A stretch of DNA of 64,000 nt from a bacterium (GTDB lineage: Bacteria; UBA4055). The stretch is taken from the NCBI GenBank assembly GCA_029559475.1, contig JAKQBN010000055.1, positions 7,089-71,088 of the forward strand, given 5' to 3'. Positions within the stretch are counted from its first letter, which is position 1; each line of letters opens with the position of its first letter. The notes beneath the pieces are model-generated. The model did not search any database, had not been told where the DNA came from, and saw nothing but the letters and a program-made list of their open reading frames with translations. The position numbers and the translations under genes are program-made. Shown piece by piece: positions 35,540 through 52,962 of the stretch.

Positions 35540-35565
35540 AGCTATATCTTTTCCAGATAAGGTTA

Positions 35566-35590
35566 GACTTTTTTGCGACGAATAAATTTA
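35566..35590. repeat. boundary motif M copy C (gacttttttgcgacgaataaattta)
   Basis: ~25-nt motif repeated at 37321-37345 and 43210-43234, each directly after a stop codon; resembles the core of the permease 3'-end repeat. Confidence 0.5.
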
Positions 35591-36637
35591 TTTTAATTTC
35601 TTTACATCTATTTTTTTGATATCTGTTTCAAGCTCTTTCAGGCTATTTTCTCTTTCTGCAAGCCTCTGGTTCTCAATGAATTTCTCATATTCGGCTTCTG
35701 ACTTCTCAAGAGCTGCCTGATGACTTATTTTTCCTGCGTGTGTGAGTAATTCTCTCTTGTTCATTTTTAAAATATCGTCAAGCTTTTCTATCCAGTCTTT
35801 CATATACATCGGAATATGCTGATTCGCCATTGTCTCAGCGAACGCGAGATACTGCTCCACAAGAAGCCCGAGAAGGCTCATTTCGTTCTCATTCAGATAA
35901 TTTTTTGCTGTCGAAACTTCGCTTTTTGTAATTCGTGTGCCGGAATCTTTATCGTAAGACTGCATGCCCATCAAAGGCATTTTTGCATCAGCTCTTCGAT
36001 AAATCAGCTCAGCTGCGGTCTGCTTACTTATAGCCCATAATAGTTTATTCTGAACGATCTTGAAGAATTCGATAGTTTTTTCATCTTTGGGATTATAATC
36101 TATGCTTGTTGTATAAATATCTTTGATCTTCTGATAAAAGAACCGTTCTGAGATCCTTATCTCGCGAAGTCGTGCCTGAAGTTCGTTAAAATAATTCATC
36201 GAATTACCCTTTTTGAACCTCTCATCGTTCAGAGTGAAGCCTTTAACGATATATTCCTTAAGCCTCTGAGTAGCCCATTTTCTGAATTGGGTACCCTGGA
36301 GTGATTTTACACGATATCCGACAGAAATTATAGCATCGAGATTATAATAATTAACTTCCGTTTCTTGAGTTTTACCTTCAATTGCACCGTGCTGAGTGGT
36401 TTGTCGGAATTTCCGACATACCATATGTTCATCCAATTCGCACTCTTTAAAAATATTTCTAATATGTTCAGTTATTGTCGTTCTGCCTTTCCCGAAAAGC
36501 TGAGCTATCTGATTTTGATTCAGCCATACGGTTTCACTTTCCAGGATCACATCGATCTTTACTTTGCCGTCATCAGCTTCGTAAACAAGGAATTGGCTGC
36601 TCTTCGAATCATGTATTGTGATATCATTTTTTGCCAT
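35588..36637 (-). CDS. RhuM-family virulence/defence-island protein
   Basis: Conserved RhuM N-terminal region (WLNQNQIAQLFGKGRTTITEHIRNIF...EVNYYNLDAIISVGYRVKS). Confidence 0.8.
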   Translation of the reverse strand: MAKNDITIHDSKSSQFLVYEADDGKVKIDVILESETVWLNQNQIAQLFGKGRTTITEHIRNIFKECELDEHMVCRKFRQTTQHGAIEGKTQETEVNYYNLDAIISVGYRVKSLQGTQFRKWATQRLKEYIVKGFTLNDERFKKGNSMNYFNELQARLREIRISERFFYQKIKDIYTTSIDYNPKDEKTIEFFKIVQNKLLWAISKQTAAELIYRRADAKMPLMGMQSYDKDSGTRITKSEVSTAKNYLNENEMSLLGLLVEQYLAFAETMANQHIPMYMKDWIEKLDDILKMNKRELLTHAGKISHQAALEKSEAEYEKFIENQRLAERENSLKELETDIKKIDVKKLK

Positions 36638-36694
36638 ATATTCTCCTCAGTAACTTCATAGGCAATTTAAGAAAAAATTCAAAGATATTCTATA

Positions 36695-36711
36695 TTTACC
36701 TGAATTATTTA
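36695..36711. repeat. boundary motif X copy 1 (tttacctgaattattta)
   Basis: Identical 16-17-mer at 38021-38037; shares tacctgaat with the permease 3'-end repeat. Confidence 0.4.
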
Positions 36712-36784
36712 CATGAACCTTATTATTGACGATTTGATTTAATCGGAAAAATTCGTATATTACGGATAAGAAAACGGAGTAAGA

Positions 36785-37033
36785 ATGCCTGTAATATCAA
36801 GATTCTATGGCATAATAATTAAGATGTACTTCAATGAGCACGGAATTCCTCATTTTCATGCTATTTATAATGAGTATAACGGAGTTTTCAGCATATCTGA
36901 TCTGATAATGATAGAAGGGGATTTGCCTTCAAAAGCACAGACACTTGTAAAGGAGTGGGCATTTAAATATAAAGATGAACTTGAAAAGATGTGGGCAACG
37001 AAAGACATAATTACTCTTCCGGGGTTGGAATAA
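36785..37033 (+). CDS. DUF4160-family protein
   Basis: MPVISRFYGIIIKMYFNEHGIPHFHA is the characteristic DUF4160 N-terminus; overlaps the start of its DUF2442 partner. Confidence 0.65.
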   Translation: MPVISRFYGIIIKMYFNEHGIPHFHAIYNEYNGVFSISDLIMIEGDLPSKAQTLVKEWAFKYKDELEKMWATKDIITLPGLE

Positions 37034-37320
37034 TGAATTTCCATAGAATTAAAAATATAGAGGTTTTGAATAATTATCAGCTCAAAGTTGAATTTATAAC
37101 CGGCGAAATAAAAATATACGATTGCAAACCACTGCTTGAGAAAGATGTTTTCAAAGCTCTGGAAAATGAGAATTTATTCAGGAAAGTAAAGGTTGATATT
37201 GGAGGCTACGGTATTATCTGGAACGATGAAATTGATATTTCTGAATCTGAATTATGGATAAACGGCAAAAATATTAACTCCCAAGTCGCTGAAGACAAAG
37301 CAGATTACAATTCAAAATAA
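36991..37320 (+). CDS. DUF2442-family protein (true start probably the ATG at ~37032 overlapping the DUF4160 stop)
   Basis: MNFHRIKNIEVLNNYQLKVEFITGEIKIYDCKPLL matches the DUF2442 pattern; DUF4160 and DUF2442 form a conserved gene pair. Confidence 0.6.
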   Translation: MGNERHNYSSGVGIMNFHRIKNIEVLNNYQLKVEFITGEIKIYDCKPLLEKDVFKALENENLFRKVKVDIGGYGIIWNDEIDISESELWINGKNINSQVAEDKADYNSK

Positions 37321-37345
37321 GACTTTTTTATAACGAATAAATTTA
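37321..37345. repeat. boundary motif M copy A (gacttttttataacgaataaattta)
   Basis: Immediately follows the DUF2442 stop codon; 22/25 identical to copy C. Confidence 0.5.
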
Positions 37346-37350
37346 CTCGA

Positions 37351-38020: not shown

Positions 38021-38037
38021 CTTACCTGAATTATTTA
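38021..38037. repeat. boundary motif X copy 2 (cttacctgaattattta)
   Basis: Identical core to 36695-36711; abuts the stop of the AAA-DUF4143 gene. Confidence 0.4.
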
Positions 38038-38048
38038 TAAAAGCCTTA

Positions 38049-39254
38049 TTATTGAAGAGTTGGTTTAGACAGAAAATCAAACAGATTTATATGTTTTACG
38101 CCTGACTTTCTTTTAAAAACGACCGGATCCATTGAAATAACATACTTCGGATGGTTGTCCCTGACAGCCTCAAGGGCTGAAAACTCTCTTTCTGCTGTTT
38201 CCTGATTCTGCATCAGATATGATACCTGAATATAGATTTTTTCTTCTTCCTTTTCCGCTATAAAATCAATTTCCTTGTCTCCTATTCTGCCGAATGATAC
38301 TTTATAATCCCTTCTGTAAAGCTCAAGGCAGACTATGTTCTCCAGTATTCCGCCGATATCTTCATCTCTGAATCCCAGTACCGCGTGTCTTAAACCCAGG
38401 TCGCCGGCGTAATATTTTGCGTTCGTGTCAAGATATTCTTTTCCTTTTAAGTCGTATTGCCTGATCTTATGTGTGATCATTACATCGTTCAGGTTGTGTA
38501 TAAGGCTCAGAATAGTCGGAACACTGGTTTTTATGTGCTGGTTCTTCATATATTTTACGACGCTGCTTGCGTTGAACTGATTACCTATGTTATCGAAAAC
38601 AAAGCTCACTACGTCCTCCAGCAGGCTCACATTCCTTACATTGAATTTCTTAACTATATCTTTGAGAAGTATCGTCTGGTAGATAGCATCAAGGAACTGA
38701 AATGTTGCGGAAGCTTGAAAATCCAGATGAAAAAGTCCCGGCAGCCCTCCGAATCTGATATATTTTCTGAATACTTCCTCCTTCGGCTTACTTTCAAAAC
38801 CTCCGAGCTCGGTAAATTCATTGAAGCTGAAAGTATATATTTTGAACTCGACATATCTGCCTGAGATCAAAGTGGCAAGATCAGATGAGAGAAGATGCGA
38901 GTTCGATCCTGTGATATAAACATCCATGCCTTCAGCCAGAAAAGAGTTCACCGACCGTTCCCATTCCTTTATTTCCTGTACTTCATCAATAAGGATAACC
39001 GAACCGGACTTTCCTCCCGATTCGTCTATATAGCTATTCAATACTTTATAGTCAGTTATAAAATCGAACTGACGAAGCTCTTTATTTATTGAAATGACTT
39101 TCTTTTTCGGTTCGTTATGTTTTATCTCAGCTTCGATCTGCTTCAGCAGTTCACTTTTTCCCACCCTTCTCATACCGCTCAGGATCTTTATGACCGGTTT
39201 ACCCATAAAAGGCCTGATCTTTTTTAAATATGTTTCCCTTATTATAGTTTTCAT
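38049..39254 (-). CDS. AAA ATPase (AAA_14 + DUF4143 family)
   Basis: Walker A SGMRRVGKSELL, Walker B ILIDEVQ, C-terminal DUF4143-like region; 401 aa. Confidence 0.75.
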   Translation of the reverse strand: MKTIIRETYLKKIRPFMGKPVIKILSGMRRVGKSELLKQIEAEIKHNEPKKKVISINKELRQFDFITDYKVLNSYIDESGGKSGSVILIDEVQEIKEWERSVNSFLAEGMDVYITGSNSHLLSSDLATLISGRYVEFKIYTFSFNEFTELGGFESKPKEEVFRKYIRFGGLPGLFHLDFQASATFQFLDAIYQTILLKDIVKKFNVRNVSLLEDVVSFVFDNIGNQFNASSVVKYMKNQHIKTSVPTILSLIHNLNDVMITHKIRQYDLKGKEYLDTNAKYYAGDLGLRHAVLGFRDEDIGGILENIVCLELYRRDYKVSFGRIGDKEIDFIAEKEEEKIYIQVSYLMQNQETAEREFSALEAVRDNHPKYVISMDPVVFKRKSGVKHINLFDFLSKPTLQ

Positions 39255-39590: not shown

Positions 39591-40094
39591 CTACCCCAGC
39601 CCCAGCACCAATTCCGGAATAAACTTATTCCTTGCGTCAGGATAGATCTTCTTTCTAAAGTTCTCTACCGCAATTTTCTCATATAAGTATAAAGACCCTC
39701 CGTCTCCGGCTATTGAATATTTAGGCATAATAATATCACCCAGCTTAATATCCGCTTTCAAAGCACCTGCCGCGCCTATGAATATCACTTTTTTGCATTT
39801 CGATCCGCCCAGAGTCAAACATGAATCGATCGTATTGGCCGCACCCGCCGCTACCTGAATATAGCCGAAACTTTTACCTTCAAATTCTACGGTATAACCG
39901 CAATAATACGGACCTTTTTTTTCTACTCTGACCACAGGATTGTATGCCGAAAAAATAATTTCAGGATTCCACGAAGGAGCCACGATTACCGCATCGTATT
40001 CAAAATCGGGATCTAACCCGTAGATATCTTTCAGCAGATTATCACAGGCGTTATACTTATGCAGGGATGATTTAAATTTTTCGTAGAGGGTCAT
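39591..40094 (-). pseudogene. truncated PNP/UDP-1 family nucleosidase (MTA/SAH-nucleosidase-like N-terminal half only)
   Basis: GYIQVAAGAANTIDSCLTLGGSKCKKVIFIGAAGALKADIKLGDIIMPKYSIAGDG aligns with the N-terminal half of Pfs/MtnN ([45 protein letters not shown]). The ORF stops after ~130 residues of the fold, the catalytic C-terminal half is absent, and 336 nt of repeat-containing non-coding DNA follow. Confidence 0.5.
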
Positions 40095-40731: not shown

Positions 40732-40738
40732 TATAATC

Positions 40739-42474: not shown

Positions 42475-43209
42475 ATGGCAACGACTAAGATAGAATGGAC
42501 AGAATCAACATGGAATCCGATCACCGGATGCACAAAATTATCCGCAGGCTGCAAATTCTGTTATGCCGAAGTAATGGCGAGAAGGCTCAAAGCTATGGGA
42601 CAGCCGAAATACAAAGACGGTTTCAAGCTTACGCTCCATCCCGACACGCTGACAGAACCTTACACTTGGAAGAAGCCTAAAATGATCTTCGTGAACTCAA
42701 TGAGCGATCTCTTCCATAAAGATGTCCCCGTTGATTACATACAAAAAATATTCAAAGTCATCAAAGACAATCCTCAGCATGTATTTCAGATACTAACAAA
42801 AAGAGCCGACATATTAAGATACTACGACAGTGAAGGCTGGCTTGACTGGCCGCATAACCTTTGGATGGGCGTGACAGTGGAAGATTCAACCGTAACATCA
42901 AGAATTGACTGCCTGAGAAAAACAAAAGCAAGAGTAAAATTCCTCTCCTGCGAACCGCTCCTAAGCTCATTACCCGAACTCAACCTACAAGCAATAGACT
43001 GGGTCATCGTAGGCGGAGAAAGCGGAAGAACACCGCGCCCGATCAAAGAAGAATGGATAATCGAAATAAAAGAACAATGTGAAAAAGCCGGAACAGCATT
43101 CTACTTTAAACAGTGGGGCGGCACCAACAAAAAAGAAGCAGGCAGGCTGTTACAAGGCAAAAGGTACGATCAAATGCCTGAAATGGTCGAGCAAGAAACT
43201 CTAATATAA
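42475..43209 (+). CDS. phage Gp37/Gp68-family protein (DUF5131)
   Basis: TKIEWTESTWNPITGCTKLSAGCKFCYA N-terminal Cys motif and the rest of the 244-aa protein match the Gp37/Gp68 family. Confidence 0.75.
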   Translation: MATTKIEWTESTWNPITGCTKLSAGCKFCYAEVMARRLKAMGQPKYKDGFKLTLHPDTLTEPYTWKKPKMIFVNSMSDLFHKDVPVDYIQKIFKVIKDNPQHVFQILTKRADILRYYDSEGWLDWPHNLWMGVTVEDSTVTSRIDCLRKTKARVKFLSCEPLLSSLPELNLQAIDWVIVGGESGRTPRPIKEEWIIEIKEQCEKAGTAFYFKQWGGTNKKEAGRLLQGKRYDQMPEMVEQETLI

Positions 43210-43234
43210 AACTTTTTGTTACGAATAAATCTTA
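43210..43234. repeat. boundary motif M copy B (aactttttgttacgaataaatctta)
   Basis: Immediately follows the Gp37/68 stop codon; ~20/25 identical to copies A and C. Confidence 0.45.
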
Positions 43235-43279: not shown

Positions 43280-44647
43280 CTAATTCTTAAATATTTTATC
43301 GTATTTTGTGTAATCGAAATTTGGTCCTAGAATTTTACTTGATTTATCTTTTAATTGTTTTGTTATACGATATATTTCATTGTTGTTATAGAATTCCCCA
43401 TTCTCATTGATTAACTTAAATAATAACTCAAAATCACTATTGTCAAAATCGTTTAAAATTTTGCTAATGATATTATCATACGTGCTTAAAGCAGAATAAT
43501 AAGTAAACGATTTTCCACAATAATTTATCAAGAATGTCTTAACTTGAATTTGAGATAAAACAATTTTTGATCTATTATAAAGCTGCATCAGAGCATCTTC
43601 CTGTATACAGTCGTATAGATTTACATTTACATAGCCATTAGGCTCAATAAGTATTTTATCATGTATTTCTTCGATTTTAGATATATGCGCCTCAATGCTA
43701 TTACTTAGAAAATATGCTACTGTAAATAAAGAAATATTTTTGTTAGCTTCGATTTGTATATAATTTTTTACTGTCGAATCTAGGACATTATATATTTCTG
43801 GATATTTGCTAATATATGATGTAAGAGCAGTAATTCGAGAACTACCTTGATTTATAGCCTTATCGTTTATGCTACAAGAAAAATTACTGGGTTTAATATT
43901 GTTGAATTTTTGTGAATTTTGCTTGATTAAATTTATAAAATCTTCAAGATGTTTTTCTGTAAGTGTCTTAATACAAAATACATTCAGATAACGGTTTTTT
44001 TCGCATTCAGAATTATCAAGAATAAATGTAAGTTTCCATAAAGATTCGAATAGTTTTTCTCTCACTGGTTTGTTAATTCTCGAGTAGTATCGTACATTTA
44101 GGAAATCTTCTAATCCCTCAGTACGGACTCTTTCAAAATAATCTGTAGTATTTTTTAAAAATTCATCAATTATCTTTTTACATAATAACGCTTCTTTCTC
44201 AAAGACAATTTCAAACATATTTCTCATGTGGTTTCTAACATTTTCCGGTGTCGGATTTATTAATCTATTTCCATTGTCAATTAATGGATGAGCAGCTATG
44301 TTTCGTTCTTTAACAAGTTCATTTATTCTATGAAATTCTACATCATTAATTAATTCAGTACTATCTTTTATTTCTTGTAACAATGTTTTTTCCCAGTCTG
44401 AAGATGTAGGTTTTAGCTTTTGTTCGTTCTTGATTTTATCAATTATTCTTTTTGCGTTATTATCAGAATATATTTCATCGAGCAAAATCAATTTGTTCAT
44501 TAAATCATAGACTACTACTGAATACAAAACGACTATTGCAGAACGATAATTACCGTTATGATAACTTGATAAGACTTCTTTTAAGTATTCTTTAGTTTGT
44601 ATGTTTGGAATTTTCTTTATCTCATCTTCAATAATAAATTCATCCAT
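43280..44647 (-). CDS. HEPN-like (Abi-type) domain protein
   Basis: 455 aa. ERNIAAHP (R-x4-H) sits in an alpha-helical N-terminal region typical of HEPN/Abi_2 nucleases. Last gene of the co-directional six-gene cluster (32-nt gap). Confidence 0.45.
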   Translation of the reverse strand: MDEFIIEDEIKKIPNIQTKEYLKEVLSSYHNGNYRSAIVVLYSVVVYDLMNKLILLDEIYSDNNAKRIIDKIKNEQKLKPTSSDWEKTLLQEIKDSTELINDVEFHRINELVKERNIAAHPLIDNGNRLINPTPENVRNHMRNMFEIVFEKEALLCKKIIDEFLKNTTDYFERVRTEGLEDFLNVRYYSRINKPVREKLFESLWKLTFILDNSECEKNRYLNVFCIKTLTEKHLEDFINLIKQNSQKFNNIKPSNFSCSINDKAINQGSSRITALTSYISKYPEIYNVLDSTVKNYIQIEANKNISLFTVAYFLSNSIEAHISKIEEIHDKILIEPNGYVNVNLYDCIQEDALMQLYNRSKIVLSQIQVKTFLINYCGKSFTYYSALSTYDNIISKILNDFDNSDFELLFKLINENGEFYNNNEIYRITKQLKDKSSKILGPNFDYTKYDKIFKN

Positions 44648-44679
44648 TCTTCACCTTCTTTTTTTTATTACAATATTAT

Positions 44680-45639
44680 TTAAGAAAATTTATTTAAAAG
44701 AGTTAAAATCTTTTTAATTTCATATTTTATTTCAGGGCTATCATTGATAGAATCAGCGAATTCAGAATCAGTAATGAGCTCTCGAAATGCTCTCATCTTT
44801 TTATAGATACTATCTATTTTTCCAGTATCTTTAACCTGTTCGAAACCATTATAAATATCTTTTTGCCCCGATGCTATCTCAGCGAGAACTTTTTTCGCTT
44901 TTTTATCAGGACACTTAGCTATTTCACCTACCTTTCTGATGTCAGAAGCCTGTTGTATTTCTTTGTTTTTTATTTGCAAAACGAGAGTATTAACTAATTC
45001 AGGATGAGATTTGGTTGCATTATTTATAGATTTGTTCTTGAGCAACTCGTCATAATAACTCCAATTTGTCGGTTCCAAGTCTTTAGTCTCAATCATAAAA
45101 GAGAAGACTTTTAAATATCTTTGAGCATCTCCTTTTTTTATACCTAACTCTTTAGCCATTATGTCAACAGATAGCTTTGATTCTTTACTTCGTCTGTACA
45201 AATATCCAGCCTGCTCGTATGGACTCCAGTCTTTTCTTCCTATAATGTGATATTGCCCAAGAAGAGTAAAAATAGATGATTCATCAATGTCTGAAGGTAA
45301 AATTAAACATTTAACTTTACCCCATGAAATAGGATCTTTTTGACATAAAATTCGATATGCCGCTAATCGGCTATTTCCTTCAAGTACAACTAAATCACCA
45401 TCACGCACAATTAAAGGATCAATTAGACCGCCATTACTTTCAATGGAAAGCCTAAGTTGCTTCACATGCTCCATCGAAATCATCAATTTTTCAATGTTAC
45501 TTTGATCGGGCTTGATGTCATCAGAAACTCTTAGGGCACTATAGACTCGAGGATTATCGACATAGAACTTAAGAGAAGCTTGGAGGATTTCCTCTTCTTT
45601 TACTTGAAACTCTTTTTTGCCAATTGTCAATGTATTCAT
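44680..45639 (-). CDS. ParB/Srx-fold nuclease-like domain protein (paralogue 1)
   Basis: GLIDPLIVRDGDLVVLEGNSRLAAYRIL matches ParB N-terminal box II (GxxRxxA). Shares HxxGxxDWxPYxxAxYL with the paralogue at 47535-48545. Its start overlaps the SNF2 gene stop by 4 nt. Confidence 0.6.
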   Translation of the reverse strand: MNTLTIGKKEFQVKEEEILQASLKFYVDNPRVYSALRVSDDIKPDQSNIEKLMISMEHVKQLRLSIESNGGLIDPLIVRDGDLVVLEGNSRLAAYRILCQKDPISWGKVKCLILPSDIDESSIFTLLGQYHIIGRKDWSPYEQAGYLYRRSKESKLSVDIMAKELGIKKGDAQRYLKVFSFMIETKDLEPTNWSYYDELLKNKSINNATKSHPELVNTLVLQIKNKEIQQASDIRKVGEIAKCPDKKAKKVLAEIASGQKDIYNGFEQVKDTGKIDSIYKKMRAFRELITDSEFADSINDSPEIKYEIKKILTLLNKFS

Positions 45640-47120
45640 GTTTCACTCTCACTATTTTCATTTAAAATATCTTTAACAAGCTCACCAAAACTATAATCCG
45701 CAACATTTTGGTATTTCTTCAAAACATAATCTCCTTGAGCTAAAAAAGCTGCATTCTGTTTGGCTTTGAGTAAAAGGTCAATCCAAATGTCAATACTATC
45801 TTTAACCATCAAATTATAGATGTTGCAAGTTTTTGTTTGTGAAATACGATGAATTCTATCTTGTGCCTGCAAATAATCATCAAGATTAAAACCGCGATCG
45901 TAAAAAATGACATTGTTCGCAACTGTCAGTGTAAGTCCTTCTTTCGCGGATTGAGGCGTAGCAAATAATACTTTAGCATCTCCATTTTTAAACTCACGTA
46001 CAGAATGTATTCTTTCTTCAATTTTCATTTTTCCGGTAATTTTTACTGCATTAAGGTACTTATACTTTTTACAGAAATGATCAACATTGTCAATAAAAAT
46101 TGACCAAACTATAATCTTTTCATCTCTATTGATTATTTCTTTGATTAATTCATCTAGTTTAGCTTCCTTACCTGAAAAACAGCAGTATAAGTCATCTAAT
46201 AATCTAGGATTTGATGTAATCTGTACCAGTCTTAACAATCTTTTTATTGAATCAGAAGATTCATCAAGTATAGCCACATCATCCCGTTGCAATAATAGTT
46301 GCATCTCTGTTCTAACTTTATCATACATCATGTATTGGGTCTTTTCAAAATCGACAAACACATCATAATACACTTTGTTTGGAAGTGTTATAATTCCGCT
46401 GCTCTTAGTCTCACGTACAGTAAAATCTTTAATTCTCGTAAAAATATTAGATACAGATGATTCAAACACATCTCTTTTTACTTTGTTATTGGACAAATCA
46501 TTAGTAAGATTTGTTGTCGATTTGAACTCAGAGAAATTAGTTCCCAGGCTCTTCCCGTTATCGAGGAAATAAATCTGAGCCCAAATATCATATGGTCTAT
46601 TAGCCACAGGTGTGCCTGTCATTATAACCCGAATCTTAAATAAACTAGAAATCTCGAAAAAATCTTGTGTTAGTCTAGAATCGGGATTTTTTAGTTTCGT
46701 AGATTCATCGATAATAATGGCAACATTCCTAGTCTTTAGAAAAAGCTTGAATCTCACTAACTCACCAGATATAGTTTCAAAATTCGTAATTATTACTCTA
46801 GTAGCGCTATTAAATACATAGTAATTTTCTGTCCGTTTACTTGTTAGGATTCTAGGTGTAATATTAGTATGTATTTCAAACTCGCCACGCCAATTTTCAA
46901 CTAATTGCTTTTTTGTGACAATAAGTACGGTATCAATTTCCAAAAATTCTAACCAATATAAAAGAAGATCAATTGCTATTTTCGTTTTACCTAGTCCTTG
47001 CTCATGAAAGATTGCTGCATATGGCAAATTTTTCATTGCTTCAAAAGCTTCGTATTGATATGGGAATGCATTTAGCTTCGCTGTTAGATTTTGTCCGGGT
47101 AAATTGATTATTTTTCTCAT
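45636..47120 (-). CDS. SNF2-family helicase (compact, 494 aa)
   Basis: Motif I HEQGLGKT, motif II IIDESTKLKN (DExx), motif III MTGTPVAN, motif VI QAQDRIHRISQTK. Confidence 0.8.
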   Translation of the reverse strand: MRKIINLPGQNLTAKLNAFPYQYEAFEAMKNLPYAAIFHEQGLGKTKIAIDLLLYWLEFLEIDTVLIVTKKQLVENWRGEFEIHTNITPRILTSKRTENYYVFNSATRVIITNFETISGELVRFKLFLKTRNVAIIIDESTKLKNPDSRLTQDFFEISSLFKIRVIMTGTPVANRPYDIWAQIYFLDNGKSLGTNFSEFKSTTNLTNDLSNNKVKRDVFESSVSNIFTRIKDFTVRETKSSGIITLPNKVYYDVFVDFEKTQYMMYDKVRTEMQLLLQRDDVAILDESSDSIKRLLRLVQITSNPRLLDDLYCCFSGKEAKLDELIKEIINRDEKIIVWSIFIDNVDHFCKKYKYLNAVKITGKMKIEERIHSVREFKNGDAKVLFATPQSAKEGLTLTVANNVIFYDRGFNLDDYLQAQDRIHRISQTKTCNIYNLMVKDSIDIWIDLLLKAKQNAAFLAQGDYVLKKYQNVADYSFGELVKDILNENSESET

Positions 47121-47530
47121 ACGATACTTACGCTCCCGATGTCGTTTAAAATATGAAGCTTGACCGATGAATTTTGTTCCGCTTTGATTCTTTTAGCCAT
47201 GTTTTTTATTCTTGCGTATGAATAAATTGATGTACAAATAATAATATGGCTTTCTTCATCAAATAATGAGGCTTCTCTAATATATGATCTATACTGTTCA
47301 ATACTGTGTTTACGGTCAATATCATTCTCAGTTTTAGCTTCTCCAATTATCAAACGACGAGTATCTTTGTAATATAGGTCAGGTATAAAATTACCAATCG
47401 TTCTTTCTGGTCTTCTGTTACTATCGGGTAAATCTACTAGCACAAGTGCCCTTGCGTCGAAAGGTAATAATAAAAATACATAATTAGCAATTTGGCGAAC
47501 ATAATTTATATGTTCAATAGATTCAGCCAT
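47117..47530 (-). CDS. small PD-(D/E)xK-like putative nuclease
   Basis: IPDLYYKDTRRLIIGEAKT (D-x13-EAK) in a 137-aa protein; both ends coupled (4-nt overlaps or gaps) to neighbouring genes. Confidence 0.4.
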   Translation of the reverse strand: MAESIEHINYVRQIANYVFLLLPFDARALVLVDLPDSNRRPERTIGNFIPDLYYKDTRRLIIGEAKTENDIDRKHSIEQYRSYIREASLFDEESHIIICTSIYSYARIKNMAKRIKAEQNSSVKLHILNDIGSVSIV

Positions 47531-47534
47531 AAAA

Positions 47535-48545
47535 TTAATCTTCAGGTTGTATGTCTTTCAATATTTCTTGGAGACCTTCAAAAATATCAAGGAGCATTGT
47601 TTTCTTTTTTTCGTATTCGGGATCACTACCTAAATTTTTTACTTCTTTGTATTCTAGCCTGTTAAGCGCTTCTAAGAATTTTGTACCAAGAACATCATAT
47701 GTAAACTTATCTAGCTCATTATGTGTATTCTCAGTTATAGCTATCTTTTTTACAGCTTCTGAGATATTTCTTCTTAAAAAAACTTTTAACGCTTCTGGTT
47801 CCTTCAGTACTGCGGGTAATTGACGCACATTTTGCGCTGTATCGATGTTATCATCGACAACCCATTTTGCAAAATCATTTTTTGTAAAACCTTTATTGGT
47901 TAGTGCATAAGTTATTGTTGACCGTTGAAGCTCAACAAATTTTGAAAATTCTCTTATATCAAAATCATCACCTTTTTCTTTTACTGCTTTGGCATAATAT
48001 ACTTGCATGTCGCGGTATGCACTTATAAGCTTATTTATTTCTGAAGTATTACCACCGCACATGGATATGATATTTGCCATTGGCAAGCGTTCAATTTCAC
48101 TCAGTTGATGTAGATATTTAGCTTTTGAATACGGATCCCAATCACGAGGACCAACTAAATGTGACTGTAATCTAATGGAATGTTTTTCTGAGTCAGTTAA
48201 GCATTCGTAAATAATGGAACTGATTTTACTCCAAGGGCCTGTTGGATTTAACGCTAGAAATTCTTTATAAATTTGAAGTCTCGTATTCCCTTCGATTACG
48301 ATTAAACGTCCATCCGGTTCTTTACTGACTATAATTGGATGAATAATTCCTCCACTGACCTTAATAGACTCCTTTAGAGTATTATAAGATGTAGATGAAT
48401 CACCGTTACCTGGGTTTGTTAATGCAAGTGCAATAGCTTCACTTGTTATTTCACCCGGATAAATCTCAAGATATTGCTTGATTCTTGGATTGTCGAGGTC
48501 AAGATGAATTTCGCTAATGTCCAATTCAATGTATTTAGGTTCCAT
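47535..48545 (-). CDS. ParB/Srx-fold nuclease-like domain protein (paralogue 2)
   Basis: GIIHPIIVSKEPDGRLIVIEGNTRLQIYKEF...GPRDWDPYSKAKYLHQL; paralogous to 44680-45639. Confidence 0.6.
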   Translation of the reverse strand: MEPKYIELDISEIHLDLDNPRIKQYLEIYPGEITSEAIALALTNPGNGDSSTSYNTLKESIKVSGGIIHPIIVSKEPDGRLIVIEGNTRLQIYKEFLALNPTGPWSKISSIIYECLTDSEKHSIRLQSHLVGPRDWDPYSKAKYLHQLSEIERLPMANIISMCGGNTSEINKLISAYRDMQVYYAKAVKEKGDDFDIREFSKFVELQRSTITYALTNKGFTKNDFAKWVVDDNIDTAQNVRQLPAVLKEPEALKVFLRRNISEAVKKIAITENTHNELDKFTYDVLGTKFLEALNRLEYKEVKNLGSDPEYEKKKTMLLDIFEGLQEILKDIQPED

Positions 48546-48556
48546 ATTTTACCCTC

Positions 48557-49819
48557 TTATTTAGATTTATACTGATTAATTTCTTCGAATCTTAAATCAT
48601 AATACTTCTTTGCGATTTCAGGAAACTCCATTTCAAAATCAATCATTGCTTTATAACAAGAGCAATATCCTTTTATGATGTTTGTATGGGTCAGGTGGTA
48701 TTCCTCATTTGCTTTACAGTACTGTCTAAAGCTTTTCTTTTTTAAAAAGTTTGGTTGATTACACCATCTTGCCAACTGTATATACATTGATTTATATTTA
48801 GATTCTTTATAATCCTCATATCTCATTATATAAGGCAAACATCCATGTTCCATTATTATTTTAATACGTTCAAAAGTATTCTCAATATCTCGTTCATCCT
48901 GGCTATCGTATCCGGTAAGGACATATAATTTTGTGGATTTTTTGTAATATTTTTTCCAAATCTTCAAGCTGTTGGAAATTTTTTCAGCATCTTCAATATG
49001 GTCAAATGCAAATATAAAATCACCTTTGTATTTAACTTTTGCAAGCCGTTCAGCTTTATCAGCTGTCATTAGTCGTATATCTAGACCCTGTCTAAATTGG
49101 AAAGGCTTCCCAGTAGCTATTAATGCATCAAGAATGGTGTAGAAGTCAGGTGAAGCCATAAAATTGTCATCCCATAAATATATGCCTCGTCTTTTTGGGT
49201 CTAAAAATTCCGAGATTGGAGAGTGTTTAATAACACGGTCATATTTCCTGTTAACACAATAACTACATTTTCTAAAACAACCTCTTGTCGTGAATCCGAT
49301 TGAGTAATTCAAGTAATCTTCATATCTAATAACATTCTTAGTAAAATTATCTGTTTGACTAGAAATAAAGTCTGTATAGAGTTCATAATCAGGCATGTGA
49401 TGTTCTATCTTATCCGGTAGATCTGGACTGTCCATCCCATAGAAACCTGTACCTCCGATAATTATCTCTTTATTATCAATTCTCTTTTGAATAACAGCTG
49501 GAATTTTAGTAAAATTAAAAACTTTAGACATTATTAAAAAATCATAAATATCTTCTTTCAATTTATCTGCAATTTCAGAGTAGTCACATATTAATTTAAC
49601 GCTATGTCTGAACTCTTTGCAATATCCCGATATTTTAAGTAAAGCAAGATTTGGATGCTTTGTGCCTTGGTCAAGAAGGTCGGCATCAATTATTCCAATT
49701 TTAAATTGTTTGTCGTTAGCCTCAATTAATTCACAAAAAATGAATCCTAATTTATTTTCGAGGAGTTTGTAGTAATTATTTTTTTGAAGGTTTTCTTTTT
49801 TACTTAACATAATTTCCAA
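48557..49819 (-). CDS. radical SAM protein with N-terminal B12-binding-like domain (class B-like)
   Basis: CFRKCSYC (CxxxCxxC) at ~aa 180. The N-terminal FKIGIIDADLLDQGTKHPNLALLKISGYCKEFRHSVKLI resembles the Rossmann-like B12-binding domain of class B radical SAM enzymes. First gene of the cluster. Confidence 0.7.
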   Translation of the reverse strand: MEIMLSKKENLQKNNYYKLLENKLGFIFCELIEANDKQFKIGIIDADLLDQGTKHPNLALLKISGYCKEFRHSVKLICDYSEIADKLKEDIYDFLIMSKVFNFTKIPAVIQKRIDNKEIIIGGTGFYGMDSPDLPDKIEHHMPDYELYTDFISSQTDNFTKNVIRYEDYLNYSIGFTTRGCFRKCSYCVNRKYDRVIKHSPISEFLDPKRRGIYLWDDNFMASPDFYTILDALIATGKPFQFRQGLDIRLMTADKAERLAKVKYKGDFIFAFDHIEDAEKISNSLKIWKKYYKKSTKLYVLTGYDSQDERDIENTFERIKIIMEHGCLPYIMRYEDYKESKYKSMYIQLARWCNQPNFLKKKSFRQYCKANEEYHLTHTNIIKGYCSCYKAMIDFEMEFPEIAKKYYDLRFEEINQYKSK

Positions 49820-50030
49820 GTTTTAAAGTTACAGAATGCTTAACTGAGAGGAAAGTGAGGACTATTTTTGATAGCAATAGACCACTTTTTGTTTAATAGA
49901 ATGAGATATTTTAATGAACTGCTTCGTTTTATAGCTGCGTTATCGTTTCATTTATGACATTAGGAAAATAAAACCTTATGAATGAATAATCAAGTAAATT
50001 GCTTTAGTATTTTGTCTGATATAATTCGAA

Positions 50031-50087
50031 TTAATTAACTTTCTTATACCTGAATACTGCGTAGTTGGTTACGACTGTGCTGTAATG
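50031..50087. repeat. attachment-like direct repeat R1: orphan copy of the ABC-2 permease 3' end
   Basis: ttaattaactttcttatacctgaatactgcgtagttggttacgactgtgctgtaatg. Its reverse complement encodes STVVTNYAVFRYKKVN* against the genuine permease C-terminus STVVTAYAVFRYKKVN*; about 52/56 nt identical to R2. Confidence 0.7.
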
Positions 50088-50109
50088 TAAAATATATTAT
50101 ACAAATGTA

Positions 50110-50138: not shown

Positions 50139-51022
50139 GCAGCTACATATTATACAGGAGGTTTATGATGGCGATGAATGAATACATTAGAAAAATGAGA
50201 GAAATGAAAAATATTTCTCAAGAGATCGCCGCAAAAGAACTGGGATATACAAGACAGACATATATACAGATCGAGAGCGGCAGCAGAGATATTACTTTAA
50301 GCGAGTTGAAGAAACTTTCGGCTATGTTTGATATTCCTTTTAATAAATTTGTGACCGAAACAGAACCTGACACATTTAACATAGATTTTGAGGAAAAGGA
50401 AGCGGATATTGAGTCAAAGGAGATAAGGATAAGTGTTCCGCAGAACAGAGTCGGTAAATTCAAGGAGGTTCTGCTTTATATTCTGTCTAAGGCGGGAGCA
50501 AAGCCGAACATTGGTGAGACAGCTATTTATAAACTTTTGTATTTTATTGATTTTGATTATTACGAGAAGTATGAAGAACAGTTGATAGGGGCGAATTATA
50601 TCAAAAATCATTATGGACCGACTCCAGTGATATTTAAAAAACTGACTGAAGAAATGATCGCTGATAATGAGCTTGAAGTGATCGAAAAAACTTATTATGA
50701 ATTCAATCAAAAGAAATATTTACCGAGAAGATGTGCCGATTTAAGTAAAATATCCGCCCGTGAGATTAAGCATATTGACGAGGAACTGGAAAGGCTAAGT
50801 GATAAAAATGCAGCTGAGTTGAGCGAGCTGTCGCATAAAGATGTCCCGTGGATCACAGCGAAGGAAGGTGAAACGATTGAATATGAAGGCGTTTTTTACC
50901 GCACAGGAGATACTTCGGTGAGATATAAAAAATTGAAAGATCGTATGTCCATGGCTGCGGAAGCTTTGTATAACGATTATTGTTCTGATAAAGAGCTCAC
51001 TGCATTTACCGATCTTATTTGA
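50123..51022 (+). CDS. HTH-XRE + Panacea (DUF4065/SocA-like) domain protein; probable start at ATG 50165
   Basis: N-terminal XRE helix-turn-helix ISQEIAAKELGYTRQTYIQIESGSRDITLSELKKLSAMF. The central region, KFKEVLLYILSKAGAKPNIGETAIYKLLYFIDFDYYEKY...NHYGPTP, matches DUF4065/Panacea. Confidence 0.65.
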   Translation: MTCVYCSYILYRRFMMAMNEYIRKMREMKNISQEIAAKELGYTRQTYIQIESGSRDITLSELKKLSAMFDIPFNKFVTETEPDTFNIDFEEKEADIESKEIRISVPQNRVGKFKEVLLYILSKAGAKPNIGETAIYKLLYFIDFDYYEKYEEQLIGANYIKNHYGPTPVIFKKLTEEMIADNELEVIEKTYYEFNQKKYLPRRCADLSKISAREIKHIDEELERLSDKNAAELSELSHKDVPWITAKEGETIEYEGVFYRTGDTSVRYKKLKDRMSMAAEALYNDYCSDKELTAFTDLI

Positions 51023-51080
51023 ATAAGTAGGTTTTGAGAACTCAACTATGCGGAGTGTAGTTAGCTTGAGGGATGGTATT

Positions 51081-51533
51081 TTAATTTTTAAAAGGATTTA
51101 TGATTTTAAGAGTGTTTTCAATCAGTTGATTATGCTGCATATCTTCGCTGTATAAAATTGAACATCCCGACTCCAATGCGGAAGCAATTACTAAGCTGTC
51201 CCAATATGAGAATCCATACCGGTCTTTGATTTCCATAGCCTTAATTACATCAAAAGTGCTTATATCGACTACATTAAAATTAGCTATAGTCTCGATAATG
51301 ATATCATTTACTTTGCCTTTTGTATTGATAGCTTTTTTTACTAGTGCTGAATAAAGCTCATTTAAAATTTGCGTACTTATGATAATATTTTCAAAATTTT
51401 CAGTAATTAACTTATCGGCTATATTTTTTTTTGAGATATCTTCGCTGTAATAAAGGTAAACCCATACATTGGTATCAATAAAAACCTTATCTGTCATATA
51501 ATTCTTCCCGGTTGAACTTATAGCCCTTTTCAA
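51081..51533 (-). CDS. PIN-domain toxin (VapC-like); probable start at the internal MTDKVFIDTNVWV
   Basis: PIN acidic residues in DTNVWV...E...D context; overlaps the upstream antitoxin stop. Confidence 0.75.
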   Translation of the reverse strand: MKRAISSTGKNYMTDKVFIDTNVWVYLYYSEDISKKNIADKLITENFENIIISTQILNELYSALVKKAINTKGKVNDIIIETIANFNVVDISTFDVIKAMEIKDRYGFSYWDSLVIASALESGCSILYSEDMQHNQLIENTLKIINPFKN

Positions 51534-51693
51534 ATTTCATCTGATATCTTTTAACAAAATCAAGAAAACTTTTCTTTTTGTCGTGTTTTTCATCAATAAT
51601 AATGACTTTAATTTTCTGCCCGTCAACCAACCCGAATTCTTCATCTAAAGTCAGGTTATTGTTATTGTATGTGGCGGTAACTACTTTAAACAT
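51487..51693 (-). CDS. small antitoxin partner of the PIN toxin (AF2212/DUF104-like)
   Basis: 68 aa, MFKVVTATYNNNNLTLDEEFGLVDGQKIKVIII pattern; translationally coupled to the PIN gene. Confidence 0.55.
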   Translation of the reverse strand: MFKVVTATYNNNNLTLDEEFGLVDGQKIKVIIIDEKHDKKKSFLDFVKRYQMKFEKGYKFNREELYDR

Positions 51694-51834
51694 AATAATT
51701 TTCTCCTTTTGCTATTCTGGTTCAATTTAGCAAAAAAAAGGATTAATTCCAAATGAAATATCAAAAAAGGCGGTCAGGGATGTTCTGACGCAGATTTTCA
51801 GAAAAACTGTTAATGAACATTGTGATACTCTTCA

Positions 51835-52962
51835 TTAATTCACTTTCTTATACCTGAATACTGCGTATGCGGTTACGACTGTGCTGTAAATGGTCATTAT
51901 TAAAAAGTGTTTTGAGATGTCTGAGAAGCCTGATCCTTTTAGGAGTACCATGCGCATTGCGTCTATGAAGTATGCTATCGGGTTGAACCATGTTATGCGC
52001 TGCGCCCACATCGGCATGCTTTGTATGGGTGTGAAGAGGCCTGACATGAGCAGGAAGATCACTAGTATGAACCATGAGATGAACATAGCCTGCTGCTGGG
52101 TGTCCGCGAAGGTTGAGATCACGAGTCCGACGGATAGGACTGCCACGAGGTAAACGGCTGCGAAAAAGAATATGAGGGTGAGGCTTCCGTTGAAGGGGAT
52201 GTCGAAAATAAGCTTGGCTATGAATAATCCGAATGTGAGTTCGAAGAGCGCGATGATGAAGAAGGGGGTGAGTTTGCCGATTATGAATTCATATTTTTTT
52301 ATCGGGGTGACATTGATCTGCTCGATCGTGCCTATTTCCTTTTCTTTTACCACGCTCATGGAGGAGAGGAACATTCCGATGAAGGTGACGAGGAGTACGA
52401 GTATGCCCGGTACCATGAAAGTGATGTAATCAAGTTCGGGATTATACCAGTGGAGATATGATACCTGCACCGTTGAAGATTGTACAGGCGTGATGACATT
52501 TATTAGGTTCATGCCTTCATCAATATTAAAATCCCTTACGATGCTCTGGGAATATGCCGCTATTATGCCTGCTGCGCCTCCGTCTATGGCGTTGATCAGG
52601 AATTGGACTTCAGCCTTATTTTCTTTGATGAGATCTCTTTCAAAATTCTTCGGGATGACTATTGTGAGTTTTGAACGGTCTTTTAAGATGCCTTCTTCCG
52701 CATCTTTCTGGCTCTGCGGATAGTCGGTTCTGGTAAAATGGGGAGAGGCTTCAAACTTTGAGGCAAGCCTTGTTGAAAGCGGGCTTCTGTCGAGATCGAG
52801 CACTCCGAAATTTACATTTTTTATTTCAAATGTGGTGGCGTTGGCTAAGATCAGAAGCTGGATGATGGGCATAACGAAGATCATCGGGAGCATTGATCTG
52901 TTCCTGAAAACCTGCCTGAATTCTTTCCTCACTATAAAAAAGATCGTTCTCATTCCGGTCAC
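51835..52962 (-). CDS. ABC-2 family transporter permease; its 3' end carries attachment-like repeat R2 (~51836-51893)
   Basis: Six-transmembrane ABC-2 permease, 375 aa. The last 16 codons plus stop are duplicated at 50031-50087. My manual coordinates in this area may be off by 1. Confidence 0.85.
   Translation of the reverse strand: MTGMRTIFFIVRKEFRQVFRNRSMLPMIFVMPIIQLLILANATTFEIKNVNFGVLDLDRSPLSTRLASKFEASPHFTRTDYPQSQKDAEEGILKDRSKLTIVIPKNFERDLIKENKAEVQFLINAIDGGAAGIIAAYSQSIVRDFNIDEGMNLINVITPVQSSTVQVSYLHWYNPELDYITFMVPGILVLLVTFIGMFLSSMSVVKEKEIGTIEQINVTPIKKYEFIIGKLTPFFIIALFELTFGLFIAKLIFDIPFNGSLTLIFFFAAVYLVAVLSVGLVISTFADTQQQAMFISWFILVIFLLMSGLFTPIQSMPMWAQRITWFNPIAYFIDAMRMVLLKGSGFSDISKHFLIMTIYSTVVTAYAVFRYKKVN

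Follow-up and report, generated by a model that had tools for sequence, protein, structure and literature searches.

Structure of the island and its modules

The analysed window is a 64-kb stretch of a Candidatus Delongbacteria genome, and all positions given here refer to it. Between 35.5 and 51.8 kb it carries a mosaic defence island of 16.3 kb, which is low in GC and differs in its modules between strains. The following genes were identified in the island:

35588..36637, minus strand: gene of the RhuM family on the left border of the low-GC island
36785..37320, plus strand: DUF4160 and DUF2442 gene pair, present as a tandem duplicate in L092
37351..37899, minus strand: 182-aa ORF with a signal-peptide-like N-terminus
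38049..39254, minus strand: AAA_14-DUF4143 gene (PDC-S01, E 8e-143)
39591..40094, minus strand: truncated PNP_UDP_1 gene encoding 167 aa, where L092 and L111 have 261-262 aa
40112..42246, minus strand: AbiLii/AbiLi (RloB + AAA_21) module, a block that L089 and L092 lack
42475..43209, plus strand: DUF5131 gene (PDC-M41B/M30B-like), a backbone anchor with 96-97% identity across all strain variants
43280..49819, minus strand: six-gene replaceable module encoding radical-SAM-like (420 aa), ParB-like (336 aa), 137-aa, SNF2 (494 aa), ParB-like (319 aa) and PD-T7-3 (455 aa) proteins
50165..51022, plus strand: XRE-HTH/Panacea antitoxin gene with an alternative TTG start at 50123
51081..51693, minus strand: AF2212-like antitoxin (51487..51693) and PIN toxin (51081..51533) genes

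The original prediction, made from the sequence alone, had correctly recognised the RhuM, DUF4160, DUF2442, AAA_14-DUF4143, RloB/AbiL, DUF5131, SNF2, Panacea and PIN genes and the PNP fragment, while its radical SAM and ParB calls found backing in PHROGs only. No family match was obtained in the profile annotation for the 182-aa ORF, the putative outer-membrane-like protein of the original prediction.

Modules of 1-6.5 kb have been gained, swapped and lost between strains, the backbone being represented by the Panacea-R-flank, DUF5131 and PNP pieces. In sibling strains, the slot of the six-gene module contains a Type I R-M system or UvrD/DUF4062/Mrr/DUF5677 genes. The PNP_UDP_1 gene has 92.5% nucleotide identity to that of L111, compared with only 72% for the core. 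Strain homology ends at 37334, 43216/43264 and 49908/49959, in agreement with several of the cassette borders proposed originally. However, two of the six proposed cassettes are composite: AbiL, DUF5131 and PNP vary independently among strains and the histories of Panacea and the PIN/antitoxin pair differ. Several modules are bracketed by imperfect repeats unrelated to the one described below, namely the 55-nt repeat X, the 61-nt repeat D2 of L092, and a copy of the PNP 5' end around DUF5131.

Duplicated end of the permease gene

The toxin–antitoxin (TA) insert is located at the permease edge of the island, where a self-BLAST search inside the island revealed a 56-nt direct repeat, R1 and R2, with an identity of 52/56, a spacing of 1804 nt, and an E of 1.3e-17:

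49959..50029, minus strand: conserved flank of ~70 nt containing AAAGCAATNTACTTGATTATTCA, which heads the downstream cassette
50030..50085, minus strand: R1, orphan permease 3' end adjoining the Panacea promoter
51773..51789, minus strand: terminator-like hairpin and T-run just 3' of the permease stop, within the inserted DNA
51834..51889, minus strand: R2, the genuine last 17 codons and stop of the ABC-2 permease gene (51835..52953/52962)

R2 forms the end of the permease ORF (51835..52962, minus strand), which matches ABC2_membrane_3 with an E of 1.8e-50, confirming the earlier identification of R2 as the real gene end and of R1 as its copy. The reverse complement of R1 translates as YSTVVTNYAVFRYKKVN, as compared to YSTVVTAYAVFRYKKVN at the real end of the permease; the frame is preserved and, as predicted, R1 still encodes the permease C-terminus followed by a stop codon. 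R1 is the only orphan in the window. The duplication was recovered in independent assemblies (an NCBI MAG, four JGI metagenomes, ENA and Logan) and therefore is not an assembly artefact.

R1 and R2 bracket the Panacea antitoxin gene, which has a sigma70-like promoter at 50110-50138, and the PIN/antitoxin pair. The usual PemK toxin partner of Panacea is missing from the window, and in the window species the AF2212-like antitoxin and PIN genes sit in its place.

Occupied, multiple and empty sites in related genomes

The second Delongbacteria lineage is represented by L106, which, like L107, is 99.5% identical to L001 (UBA12480) and therefore belongs to the same species. L106 matches the window in the order of its elements, which are an orphan of 55 nt, Panacea, PemK and the genuine end of the permease gene, and the junction between the orphan and the Panacea promoter is found at the same base in the two species. 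The orphan and Panacea are 93% identical between the window and the L106 species, compared with 78.6% for the ABC operon, and in L111, a third lineage, Panacea, the orphan and the flank are 87% identical to the window, while the core is 72% identical. Since in both cases the orphan and Panacea are more similar than the core, the unit has moved horizontally, with the same landing site each time. The L106 orphan has window-type bases (TACGCAGTATTC), unlike the real permease end of L106 itself (TTCGCCGTCTTC); therefore, the upstream arm of the orphan arrived with the cassette. Both in the window species and in L111, the flank comes after each orphan.

An empty site was found in a fourth lineage, L113, where the permease stop codon is followed directly by ~150 nt with 88.7% identity to the post-orphan DNA of L106. 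A related genome in which the intact permease gene runs straight into the downstream DNA, suggested originally as a check, thus does exist. As a point against the insertion proposed below, L113 belongs to a lineage different from those with occupied sites and is not a sibling strain.

Other strains revealed further variants of the site. In L082 and L089, a 149-nt orphan follows the antitoxin-PIN' sequence, and in L087 and L092 a second, more degenerate orphan with the flank is located between UvrD/DUF4062 and Mrr/DUF5677. L087 has three copies, the real end and two orphans, of which the distal one is the most degenerate (79%). The length of the orphan across strains is 149, 55-56, ~80 (with an internal gap) or 23 nt. 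The permease site is used recurrently, and the proposed repeated insertion, with older copies displaced outward and decaying, is seen in the sibling L087, although the window itself has one orphan. No orphan was present at 76 more distant permease loci.

Repeats elsewhere in the island

The original prediction considered seven sites (R1, R2, three M, two X, plus an 11-mer) as decayed copies of one attachment site delimiting six tandem cassettes. The M and X sites are as follows:

35565..35590, plus strand: M1, overlapping the RhuM stop codon
37320..37345, plus strand: M2, 23/26 identical to M1; homology with L092 stops inside it, at 37334
43208..43233, plus strand: M3, directly after the DUF5131 stop codon; homology with L087 and L092 stops inside it, at 43216
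36696..36750, plus strand: X1, in the upstream region of DUF4160, 82% identical to X2
38022..38076, plus strand: X2, covering the final 9 codons of the PDC-S01 gene and 27 nt downstream

M and X are genuine repeats at gene ends. All three M copies abut stop codons, and for those predicted at 35566 and 37321 the match to the 25-nt degenerate pattern is perfect, with no such match expected in shuffles (self-BLAST E for M1/M2 0.02 only), but the copy at 43208 is weak (73%). The X repeat, noticed as a 17-mer, is real and larger than claimed, extending over 55 nt (E 6e-9 in self-BLAST).

In favour of a common origin of these sites are the two strain-homology breakpoints within M2 and M3 and a 9-mer common to X and R. 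However, when R was locally aligned to 6374 40-nt tiles of the window, the likeness of M and X to R was at background: 43% of tiles scored at least as high as M1, 15-30% as M3, 3% as X, and 0.75% as M2. A profile built from the orphan and its flank (nhmmer, --max, E<=10) matched only R1 and R2 in the window, and not the M, X or 11-mer sites. The 11-mer at 39376, taken for a relic of R1, is a chance match: 11-mers of R1 recur at six places scattered over the window, this being one of them. M2 and M3 are absent at the equivalent junctions in L092 and L087, while X1 is part of the DUF4160 upstream region and is conserved in L092, a strain without the PDC-S01 gene. Moreover, the interleaved order M1<X1<M2<X2 is impossible to obtain by tandem or nested integration. 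M and X are separate repeat families rather than decayed copies of R, the 9-mer notwithstanding, and R1 and R2 are the sole copies of R in the window. Derivation of M, X and the 11-mer from R was rejected on the basis of the tile alignment and the profile search; therefore, the scheme of seven sites, six cassettes and one attachment site fails as stated, and we consider it almost certainly wrong.

Origin of the duplication

We propose, with a probability of about 0.7, that R1 and R2 are the junction copies of a single-crossover (Campbell-type) insertion that placed a small TA cassette within the terminal ~55 nt of the permease gene. The arriving DNA would have brought its own copy of the permease gene end, which would leave the permease intact (R2) and a second copy (R1) beyond the insert, by the Panacea promoter. 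The original cassette probably comprised the Panacea antitoxin and PemK toxin genes, as it still does in the lineage of L106, and PemK would have been replaced later by the AF2212-like antitoxin and PIN pair in the window species. Since this swap left no extra copy of R, Campbell insertion does not account for every step.

Alternatively, R1 could be what is left of a further permease gene that used to be complete, or of a permease that a donor genome contributed with a large island and that was then deleted. Indeed, two paralogous ABC-2 permease genes are located in tandem (51835..52962 and 52959..54110), and L082 retains the longer, 149-nt fragment. Nevertheless, such an origin seems very improbable: the orphan matches the adjacent permease and not the paralogue, its junction with Panacea is at an identical base in two species, the second copy never exceeds 149 nt in any relative, and the empty site of L113 is collinear with the orphan plus the distal DNA from precisely the stop codon onwards.

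As regards the mechanism of the proposed single crossover, we lean slightly towards the use of the short homology itself by host recombination, acting on circularised or otherwise transferred island fragments. The duplication, its occurrence in three lineages, the empty site and the variability among strains are observed, whereas the circular intermediate and the enzyme are inferred solely from the anatomy of the junctions, as neither a circular form nor an excision product or a recombinase was seen. Identity to L001 climbs from ~0.76 to 0.87-0.89 towards the permease 3' end, the length of the orphan is variable, and the 149-nt orphan of L082 has the native terminator region D just upstream of it, as a circularised contiguous donor segment would give. 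On the other hand, host recombination would be inefficient over a 55-nt stretch with 85-90% identity, and a 24-nt core conserved in all orphans fits the core site of a recombinase. Such an integrase, encoded elsewhere or on a helper element, might act in trans on the ~24-nt core at the permease stop (TTCAGGTATAAGAAAGTGAATTA), adding integrase-less cassettes serially, and these could by analogy be likened to satellite or cargo elements in tandem arrays.

Identity in the last 24 nt of the gene is 22-24/24 throughout the lineages but drops to 66-85% over the 129 nt before them; no orphan has lost this core, not even the shortest (orphan 2 of L087), and all differences between the real end and the orphan of L106 are upstream of it. 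In each of three lineages, DNA with a higher similarity than that of the core genome has entered the same site, and tandem arrays and attP-borne gene fragments are known for integrative elements (PMC7192596; tycheposons, 10.1101/2020.12.28.424599). However, the C-terminal peptide xYKKxx* is conserved family-wide, and part of the core conservation is therefore at the protein level, which weakens this argument. The core has a 5-bp inverted repeat only, as read from the sequence, and no hairpin; the upstream boundary of the orphan varies from 23 to 149 nt; copies of the core or R were not found in IMG/VR, phage or plasmid collections; and the more distant permease loci have no orphan. No integrase was found in the window, as noted originally, or in the adjoining ~23 kb (7 kb to the left and 16 kb to the right) of the 111-kb contig, where a search had been suggested, or in five variant islands. 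One integrase would also leave the unrelated repeats flanking other modules unexplained. Because no integrase was found and unrelated repeats bracket other modules, a short-homology single crossover is favoured over a dedicated integrase, whose involvement we consider possible but rather unlikely. For the earlier proposal of site-specific integration at the permease 3' end, the insertion footprint and the intact gene end hold, but since no recombinase was found, 'site-specific' is still an assumption.

Comparison with known systems

The window Panacea gene shares the XRE-HTH and Panacea antitoxin architecture with PanAT (Panacea, SocA/DUF4065) TA systems, in which the Panacea domain pairs with many toxins (PMC8832971). 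In its close relatives an overlapping PemK toxin gene comes next, while in the window there is no co-directional toxin but a convergent PIN gene paired with its own antitoxin.

Integron arrays likewise contain small promoter-less or self-contained cassettes, often with TA genes, with one entry point and border repeats. Here, however, IntI is absent, the repeats are copies of the end of the neighbouring gene, and there is no attC-type imperfect palindrome (folding of the R unit versus shuffles, z ~0).

In tandem arrays of integrative elements, including tycheposons at tRNA genes, newcomers displace older elements inward and partial target-gene copies are scattered and degenerate (10.1101/2020.12.28.424599; PMC7192596). 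The three copies of L087, the most distal being the most decayed, are similar, but those arrays carry integrase genes or fragments and target tRNA/tmRNA genes, whereas here the target is the ABC-2 permease CDS, no integrase or remnant was seen, and the window has one orphan.

The permease-end duplication is an ordinary kind of insertion scar. The elements e14 and phage 21 insert into the 3' end of E. coli icd and supply a replacement end (icd and the icdC pseudogene) (PMC13626634; PMC7192596). In both cases the protein stays functional and a C-terminal fragment is found on the far side of the element. However, e14 and phage 21 are prophages that encode an integrase of their own and have a defined att core, while here a 1.3-1.8-kb TA cassette without a recombinase is flanked by a duplicated segment that varies by strain (23-149 nt).

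The island also resembles defence hotspots flanked by core genes, being a low-GC, strain-variable block between conserved genes with RhuM, PDC-S01, AbiL, DUF5131, PD-T7-3 and TA modules (Type I R-M or Mrr in siblings), and whole modules are swapped among otherwise near-identical strains. Double crossover in the flanks of such hotspots leaves no target duplication, whereas here imperfect direct repeats flank several modules.

The duplicated permease terminus

The genuine 3' end of the ABC-2 permease gene, R2 (51834–51889), is the terminus of the minus-strand ORF 51835..52962 (ABC2_membrane_3, E = 1.8e-50), which is full-length in the window with an intact C-terminus. An orphan copy of this gene end, R1 (50030–50085), is located at a spacing of 1804 nt, and the two form a 56-nt direct repeat with 52 of 56 positions identical (E = 1.3e-17 in a BLAST comparison of the island with itself). 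The repeat boundaries are one base past the stop codon and 52 nt into the permease gene; the reverse complement of R1 translates as YSTVVTNYAVFRYKKVN, its R2 counterpart being YSTVVTAYAVFRYKKVN, each ending in a stop codon. Three genes lie between R1 and R2:

50165..51022, plus strand: XRE-HTH/Panacea antitoxin gene
51081..51533, minus strand: PIN toxin gene
51487..51693, minus strand: AF2212-like antitoxin gene of PIN

Direct repeats of the permease end were also found at insert borders in four related loci (L106, L082, L087 and L111). The duplication is not an assembly artefact, since NCBI, ENA, Logan and four JGI metagenomes all contain it in separately built assemblies. The original prediction, which had read R1/R2 as a duplicated permease 3' end marking an insertion, is borne out. 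Two independently assembled contigs end in this region: that of a 72% relative (L002) breaks exactly at the permease stop codon and hence gives no view of the 3' side, and another (L085) stops at window position 36859, inside the DUF4160 module. These breaks are compatible with strain heterogeneity or with repeats at those junctions.

The Panacea protein of the window (SocA_Panacea, E = 7.5e-18, plus HTH_3) has no co-transcribed toxin gene next to it, the convergent PIN gene being 58 nt past the Panacea stop codon, while in loci L106, L102 and L001 a PemK gene overlaps Panacea. The window gene is an orphan antitoxin whose PemK toxin has been lost. The exchange of PemK for the PIN/antitoxin pair left no additional R copy and was certainly a different kind of step. 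A strong sigma70-like promoter (50110–50138) is retained by the Panacea gene; the stretch from this gene to the PIN gene covers 50165–51081.

Composition of the defence island

The region 35540–51834 has a GC content of 0.34 (0.27–0.44 per module) versus 0.43 on both sides, and contains the following genes:

RhuM
DUF4160/DUF2442
182-aa ORF without a family match
PDC-S01 (AAA_14-DUF4143)
39591–40094: truncated PNP
AbiLii/AbiLi
DUF5131 (PDC-M41B/M30B-like)
43280–44647: PD-T7-3
44680–49819, minus strand: five-gene cluster (radical-SAM-like, ParB-like, 137-aa, SNF2, ParB-like)
toxin-antitoxin genes

PADLOC matches were obtained for PDC-S01, AbiLi/ii, PDC-M41B/M30B and PD-T7-3, together with a ZorD/DpdE-like SNF2 protein. 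With its clustered defence genes, strain-variable content and atypical composition, the region is a defence island. Homology between the window and its relatives breaks at 37334, at 40111/42247 (the AbiL slot), at 43216 or 43264, at 49908, 49959 or 49991, at 51016 and at 51473; the six-gene module, AbiL, the DUF4160/DUF2442 pair, Panacea and the PIN/antitoxin pair are therefore separate modules, while the Panacea-R-flank segment (the flank being about 70 nt next to the orphan), DUF5131 and PNP act as a backbone.

The five-gene cluster, which lies beside PD-T7-3, gave no whole-system PADLOC match, and four of its genes lack a Pfam match. The cluster encodes a radical-SAM-like protein of 420 aa (CxxxCxxC; phrog_9298, E = 5e-52), a ParB-like protein of 336 aa, a 137-aa protein without a match, an SNF2 protein of 494 aa and a ParB-like protein of 319 aa. 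Since in sibling strains the same slot holds Type I R-M or UvrD/DUF4062/Mrr/DUF5677 genes, the cluster is a candidate undescribed defence system. The PNP_UDP_1 gene, cut to 167 aa in the window, encodes 261–262 aa in L092 (4680–5465) and L111 (6070–6858); its nucleotide identity between the window and L111 is 92.5%, while that of the core ABC transporter operon is only 72%, and therefore PNP moves along with the island and is not a neighbour belonging to the core. The 336-nt gap upstream of PDC-S01 contains a 22-nt direct repeat (21/22 identical; 39410–39431 and 39476–39497, 66 nt apart), which may be an operator or promoter element.

Other short repeats in the island

Three further motifs, M, X and an 11-mer at 39376, had been proposed as degenerate R copies that divide the region into six cassettes at seven sites. 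As repeats, M and X are real. The M copies at 35566 and 37321 fit a 25-nt degenerate pattern exactly and are identical at 23 of 26 positions, none being expected in shuffled sequence; the third, at 43208, is only 73% identical. M reads TAAATTTATTCGTnnnAAAAAAGTC on the minus strand and lies downstream of three minus-strand genes. X turned out to be larger than the 17-mer first reported, with 55 nt at 82% identity (36696–36750 and 38022–38076; E = 6e-9).

Their derivation from R was not upheld. The window was cut into 6374 tiles of 40 nt, R was aligned locally to both strands of each, and each motif was scored by the fraction of tiles equalling or exceeding it: 43% for M1, 15–30% for M3, 3% for X and 0.75% for M2, none of which survives correction for five tests. 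A search of the window with an nhmmer profile of four orphan-plus-flank units (--max, E ≤ 10) recovered only R1 (E = 1e-39) and R2 (E = 2e-13). These results rule out M and X as decayed R, and the 11-mer is a chance match: R1 11-mers recur at six scattered places in the window, of which this is one. Copies of M and X alternate along the sequence (M1<X1<M2<X2), and are therefore not the product of tandem or nested insertion at one site. X1 is part of the DUF4160 upstream region and is kept in L092, which has no AAA_14-DUF4143 gene, while X2 overlaps the last nine codons of that gene; M2 and M3 are not present at the equivalent junctions of L092 and L087. With R1 and R2 as the only permease-end copies in the window, the array of seven sites and six cassettes is unsupported there.

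Repeated use of the site in sibling strains

Sibling strains carry an identical permease protein and different cargo. In L082/L089 the permease is followed by the antitoxin, a PIN gene cut after about 14 codons, a 90-nt terminator-bearing region (D), a 149-nt orphan, the flank, Type I R-M genes, DUF5131 and PNP; AbiL is absent from these loci. In L087/L090/L092 the order is permease, antitoxin-PIN, Panacea, orphan 1 with flank, UvrD, DUF4062, orphan 2 with flank, Mrr, DUF5677, DUF5131, full-length PNP and two DUF4160/DUF2442 pairs. The orphan 2 unit comprises the last ~23 nt of the gene and ~72 nt of flank, at 79% identity. Three permease-end copies are thus present in L087/L092, the farthest one being the most decayed, so that the predicted tandem array with decaying copies does exist in a sibling strain, while the window has two copies.

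Repeats unrelated to R were also detected in L092: a 61-nt imperfect direct repeat (D2, 84%; 1991–2051 and 3752–3812) flanks DUF4160/DUF2442 pairs, and a 43–70-nt copy of the PNP 5' end (5439–5481 and 6493–6535) flanks DUF5131. The D region (L113 4094–4183; L106 454–601; L082 11488–11577; ~90–150 nt) is located downstream of the permease stop in L113, after the orphan in L106 and before the 149-nt orphan in L082. It contains an 11-bp hairpin (AAGCCGTCAAA-GCAA-TTTGGCGGTTT), has no Rfam match, and is 89–91% identical across lineages with permease genes ~70% identical; a role as terminator or as small RNA is possible.

Comparison with other lineages

The nearest named relative is the Candidatus Delongbacteria MAG UBA12480 (L001), with a 90% identical permease; L106/L107 are 99.5% identical to L001 and therefore belong to the same species. 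In the order known from the window, they carry an orphan of 55 nt, Panacea with a PemK toxin gene overlapping it, and the genuine permease end. In the alignment, the junction between the orphan and the Panacea promoter falls at the same base in L106 and the window, while the outer flanks differ. The orphan and Panacea are 93% identical over 988 nt between the two species, compared with only 78.6% for the ABC operon. In a third lineage (L111, permease 72% identical at the amino acid level), Panacea, orphan and flank are 87% identical to the window and the core 72%. The unit has therefore been transferred horizontally and has reached the same site in different lineages. The L106 orphan has window-type bases (…CCTACGCAGTATTC…), unlike its own real permease end (…CTTTCGCCGTCTTC…), so that the orphan arm must have arrived together with the cassette.

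In a fourth lineage (L113), the permease stop codon is followed by ~150 nt with 88.7% identity to the DNA after the L106 orphan, the two loci being collinear from the stop codon onward. L113 thus represents an empty site, in a comparison across lineages rather than between sibling strains, and agrees with the insertion-free relative that had been anticipated. Taken comparatively, R1/R2 is most probably an insertion scar.

None of 76 loci from Bacteroidota and relatives (50–59% identity) had an orphan within 10 kb, so that a hotspot at this gene end shared by these groups at large was rejected. A Panacea relative (P0003, 69% identity) is paired with PemK in an unrelated island away from any permease, and therefore the Panacea-PemK pair itself is not bound to this site. 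A metagenome scan with the flank block returned the same population only, plus one chance match in a secretion ATPase gene (L095).

Other variable regions of the window

A second low-GC defence island (GC 0.29–0.40) occupies positions 1–13100 and encodes DUF7663, a Type ISP restriction-modification enzyme (1044 aa), DUF4062, Schlafen AlbA_2/HATPase_c_4, a MoxR-like AAA and VWA-like pair, an ORF6N-domain protein and an AAA ATPase. Gene content likewise varies between strains on the opposite side of the ABC operon (59500–64000 and beyond; L099 8676–14068). Between TetR and the glyoxalase gene the window strain has 232-aa and 124-aa ORFs, an FGE-sulfatase-domain protein, FitA-like, BrnT/CopG and FitA/PIN genes, while in L082 the glyoxalase/AbiEii block is directly beside TetR. 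Tandem repeats with a ~111-nt period (61172–61438; 156-nt overlapping self-matches, 95.5%) lie within the 685-aa FGE-sulfatase-domain gene (61019..63076). The TetR/OEP/HlyD/ABC-ATPase/ABC-2 permease operon includes a radical SAM gene (55706–56623, 305 aa), which every lineage examined retains. Such a gene is an unusual companion of an efflux-type transporter, and its presence suggests that a modified peptide is exported.

Possible mechanism of insertion

The junction anatomy fits a single-crossover (Campbell-type) insertion, in which incoming DNA would carry a copy of the target gene end. We give a probability of about 55% to homology-driven insertion of circularised island fragments. In L082 the native downstream region D is directly upstream of the 149-nt orphan, as would be expected if one uninterrupted piece of donor DNA (permease end…PIN…D) had circularised and recombined via its 149 nt of homology. 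A dedicated integrase acting in trans, which we consider less likely, would account for the gene's final 24 nt (TTCAGGTATAAGAAAGTGAATTAA) being identical at 22–24 of 24 positions in all lineages, while the 129 nt before them drop to 66%; no orphan lacks this core, and in L106 every difference between real end and orphan is upstream of it. However, the C-terminal xYKKxx* peptide is itself conserved throughout the family, with differing codons, so that conservation of the core is partly at the protein level. Orphan length is not fixed (149, 55–56, ~80 with an internal gap, and 23 nt), identity to L001 increases toward the permease 3' end, and imperfect repeats unrelated to R border other modules (X, 55 nt; D2 of L092, 61 nt; the PNP 5' copy), all of which speaks against an integrase and for recombination through homology. 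The small remainder of probability falls to other mechanisms.

Searches for the enzyme and its substrate also weigh against an integrase. Five island variants were covered, and none has an integrase gene close to the locus. As first noted, none is visible in the window: no ORF of the insert, the island or the whole 64 kb has a recombinase domain. The adjoining contig likewise has none in the 7 kb to the left and 16 kb to the right (~23 kb). Neither the R-to-R segment nor the core matched the viral, phage and plasmid collections IMG/VR, INPHARED and PLSDB, and an origin of either from a plasmid, phage or satellite was rejected on this basis. No hairpin forms in the R unit, and R-plus-flank units fold like shuffled sequences (z = 0.45, 0.07, 0.84 and −0.07), so that an attC-like or structured recombination site was rejected. 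Neither the junctions nor the D region contain a tRNA, tmRNA or known RNA.

Because no recombinase was found and several unrelated repeats flank modules, one could speculate, with a small chance of being right, that defence and toxin-antitoxin modules (1–6.5 kb) move as recombinase-less circles carrying 25–150 nt of a neighbouring gene terminus and enter there by single crossover, the island growing in the manner of an integron that lacks IntI and attC, its main entry being the permease stop. If true, this would account for the unrelated imperfect repeats around several modules in several strains (R, X, the 61-nt pair of L092, the PNP 5' copy). Cassettes that need no dedicated integrase would bear on the assembly of defence islands in genomes poor in classical mobile elements. 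The locus is a clean example, backed by comparison with relatives, in which the 3' end of a protein gene has repeatedly admitted defence and toxin-antitoxin cargo, in the barely studied and under-sampled phylum Ca. Delongbacteria; one small cassette has jumped from lineage to lineage and landed at an identical base each time.

Comparison with known systems

This type of footprint, an icd/e14-like duplication with tandem accretion, is already textbook. The same gene-end arrangement is known for e14/phage 21 at icd (PMC13626634) and the same insertion arrangement for integrative elements in general (PMC7192596), while tandem accretion with decaying target fragments is known for tycheposons (10.1101/2020.12.28.424599). 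The locus shares with the icd/e14 type the direct repeats of the target gene end at both insert borders, an intact target gene and an empty site in a relative (L113 versus L106, across lineages), whereas the element-encoded integrase of that type was found neither in the insert or island nor in the rest of the window or the ~23 kb of contig beside it. Unlike in integrons, there is neither IntI next to the entry site nor attC-type palindromes at cassette borders, where folding equals that of shuffles. A Panacea-domain antitoxin is present, as in PanAT systems, but their adjacent co-transcribed toxin is missing in the window. The three or more direct att copies of tandem att arrays are not seen in the window (R1 and R2 only) but occur in L087/L092. 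What is unusual here is the lack of a recombinase together with several unrelated module-flanking repeats; in its overall organisation, the locus is a defence island that differs between strains and in which a gene-end duplication of the icd/e14 kind encloses a toxin-antitoxin cassette.
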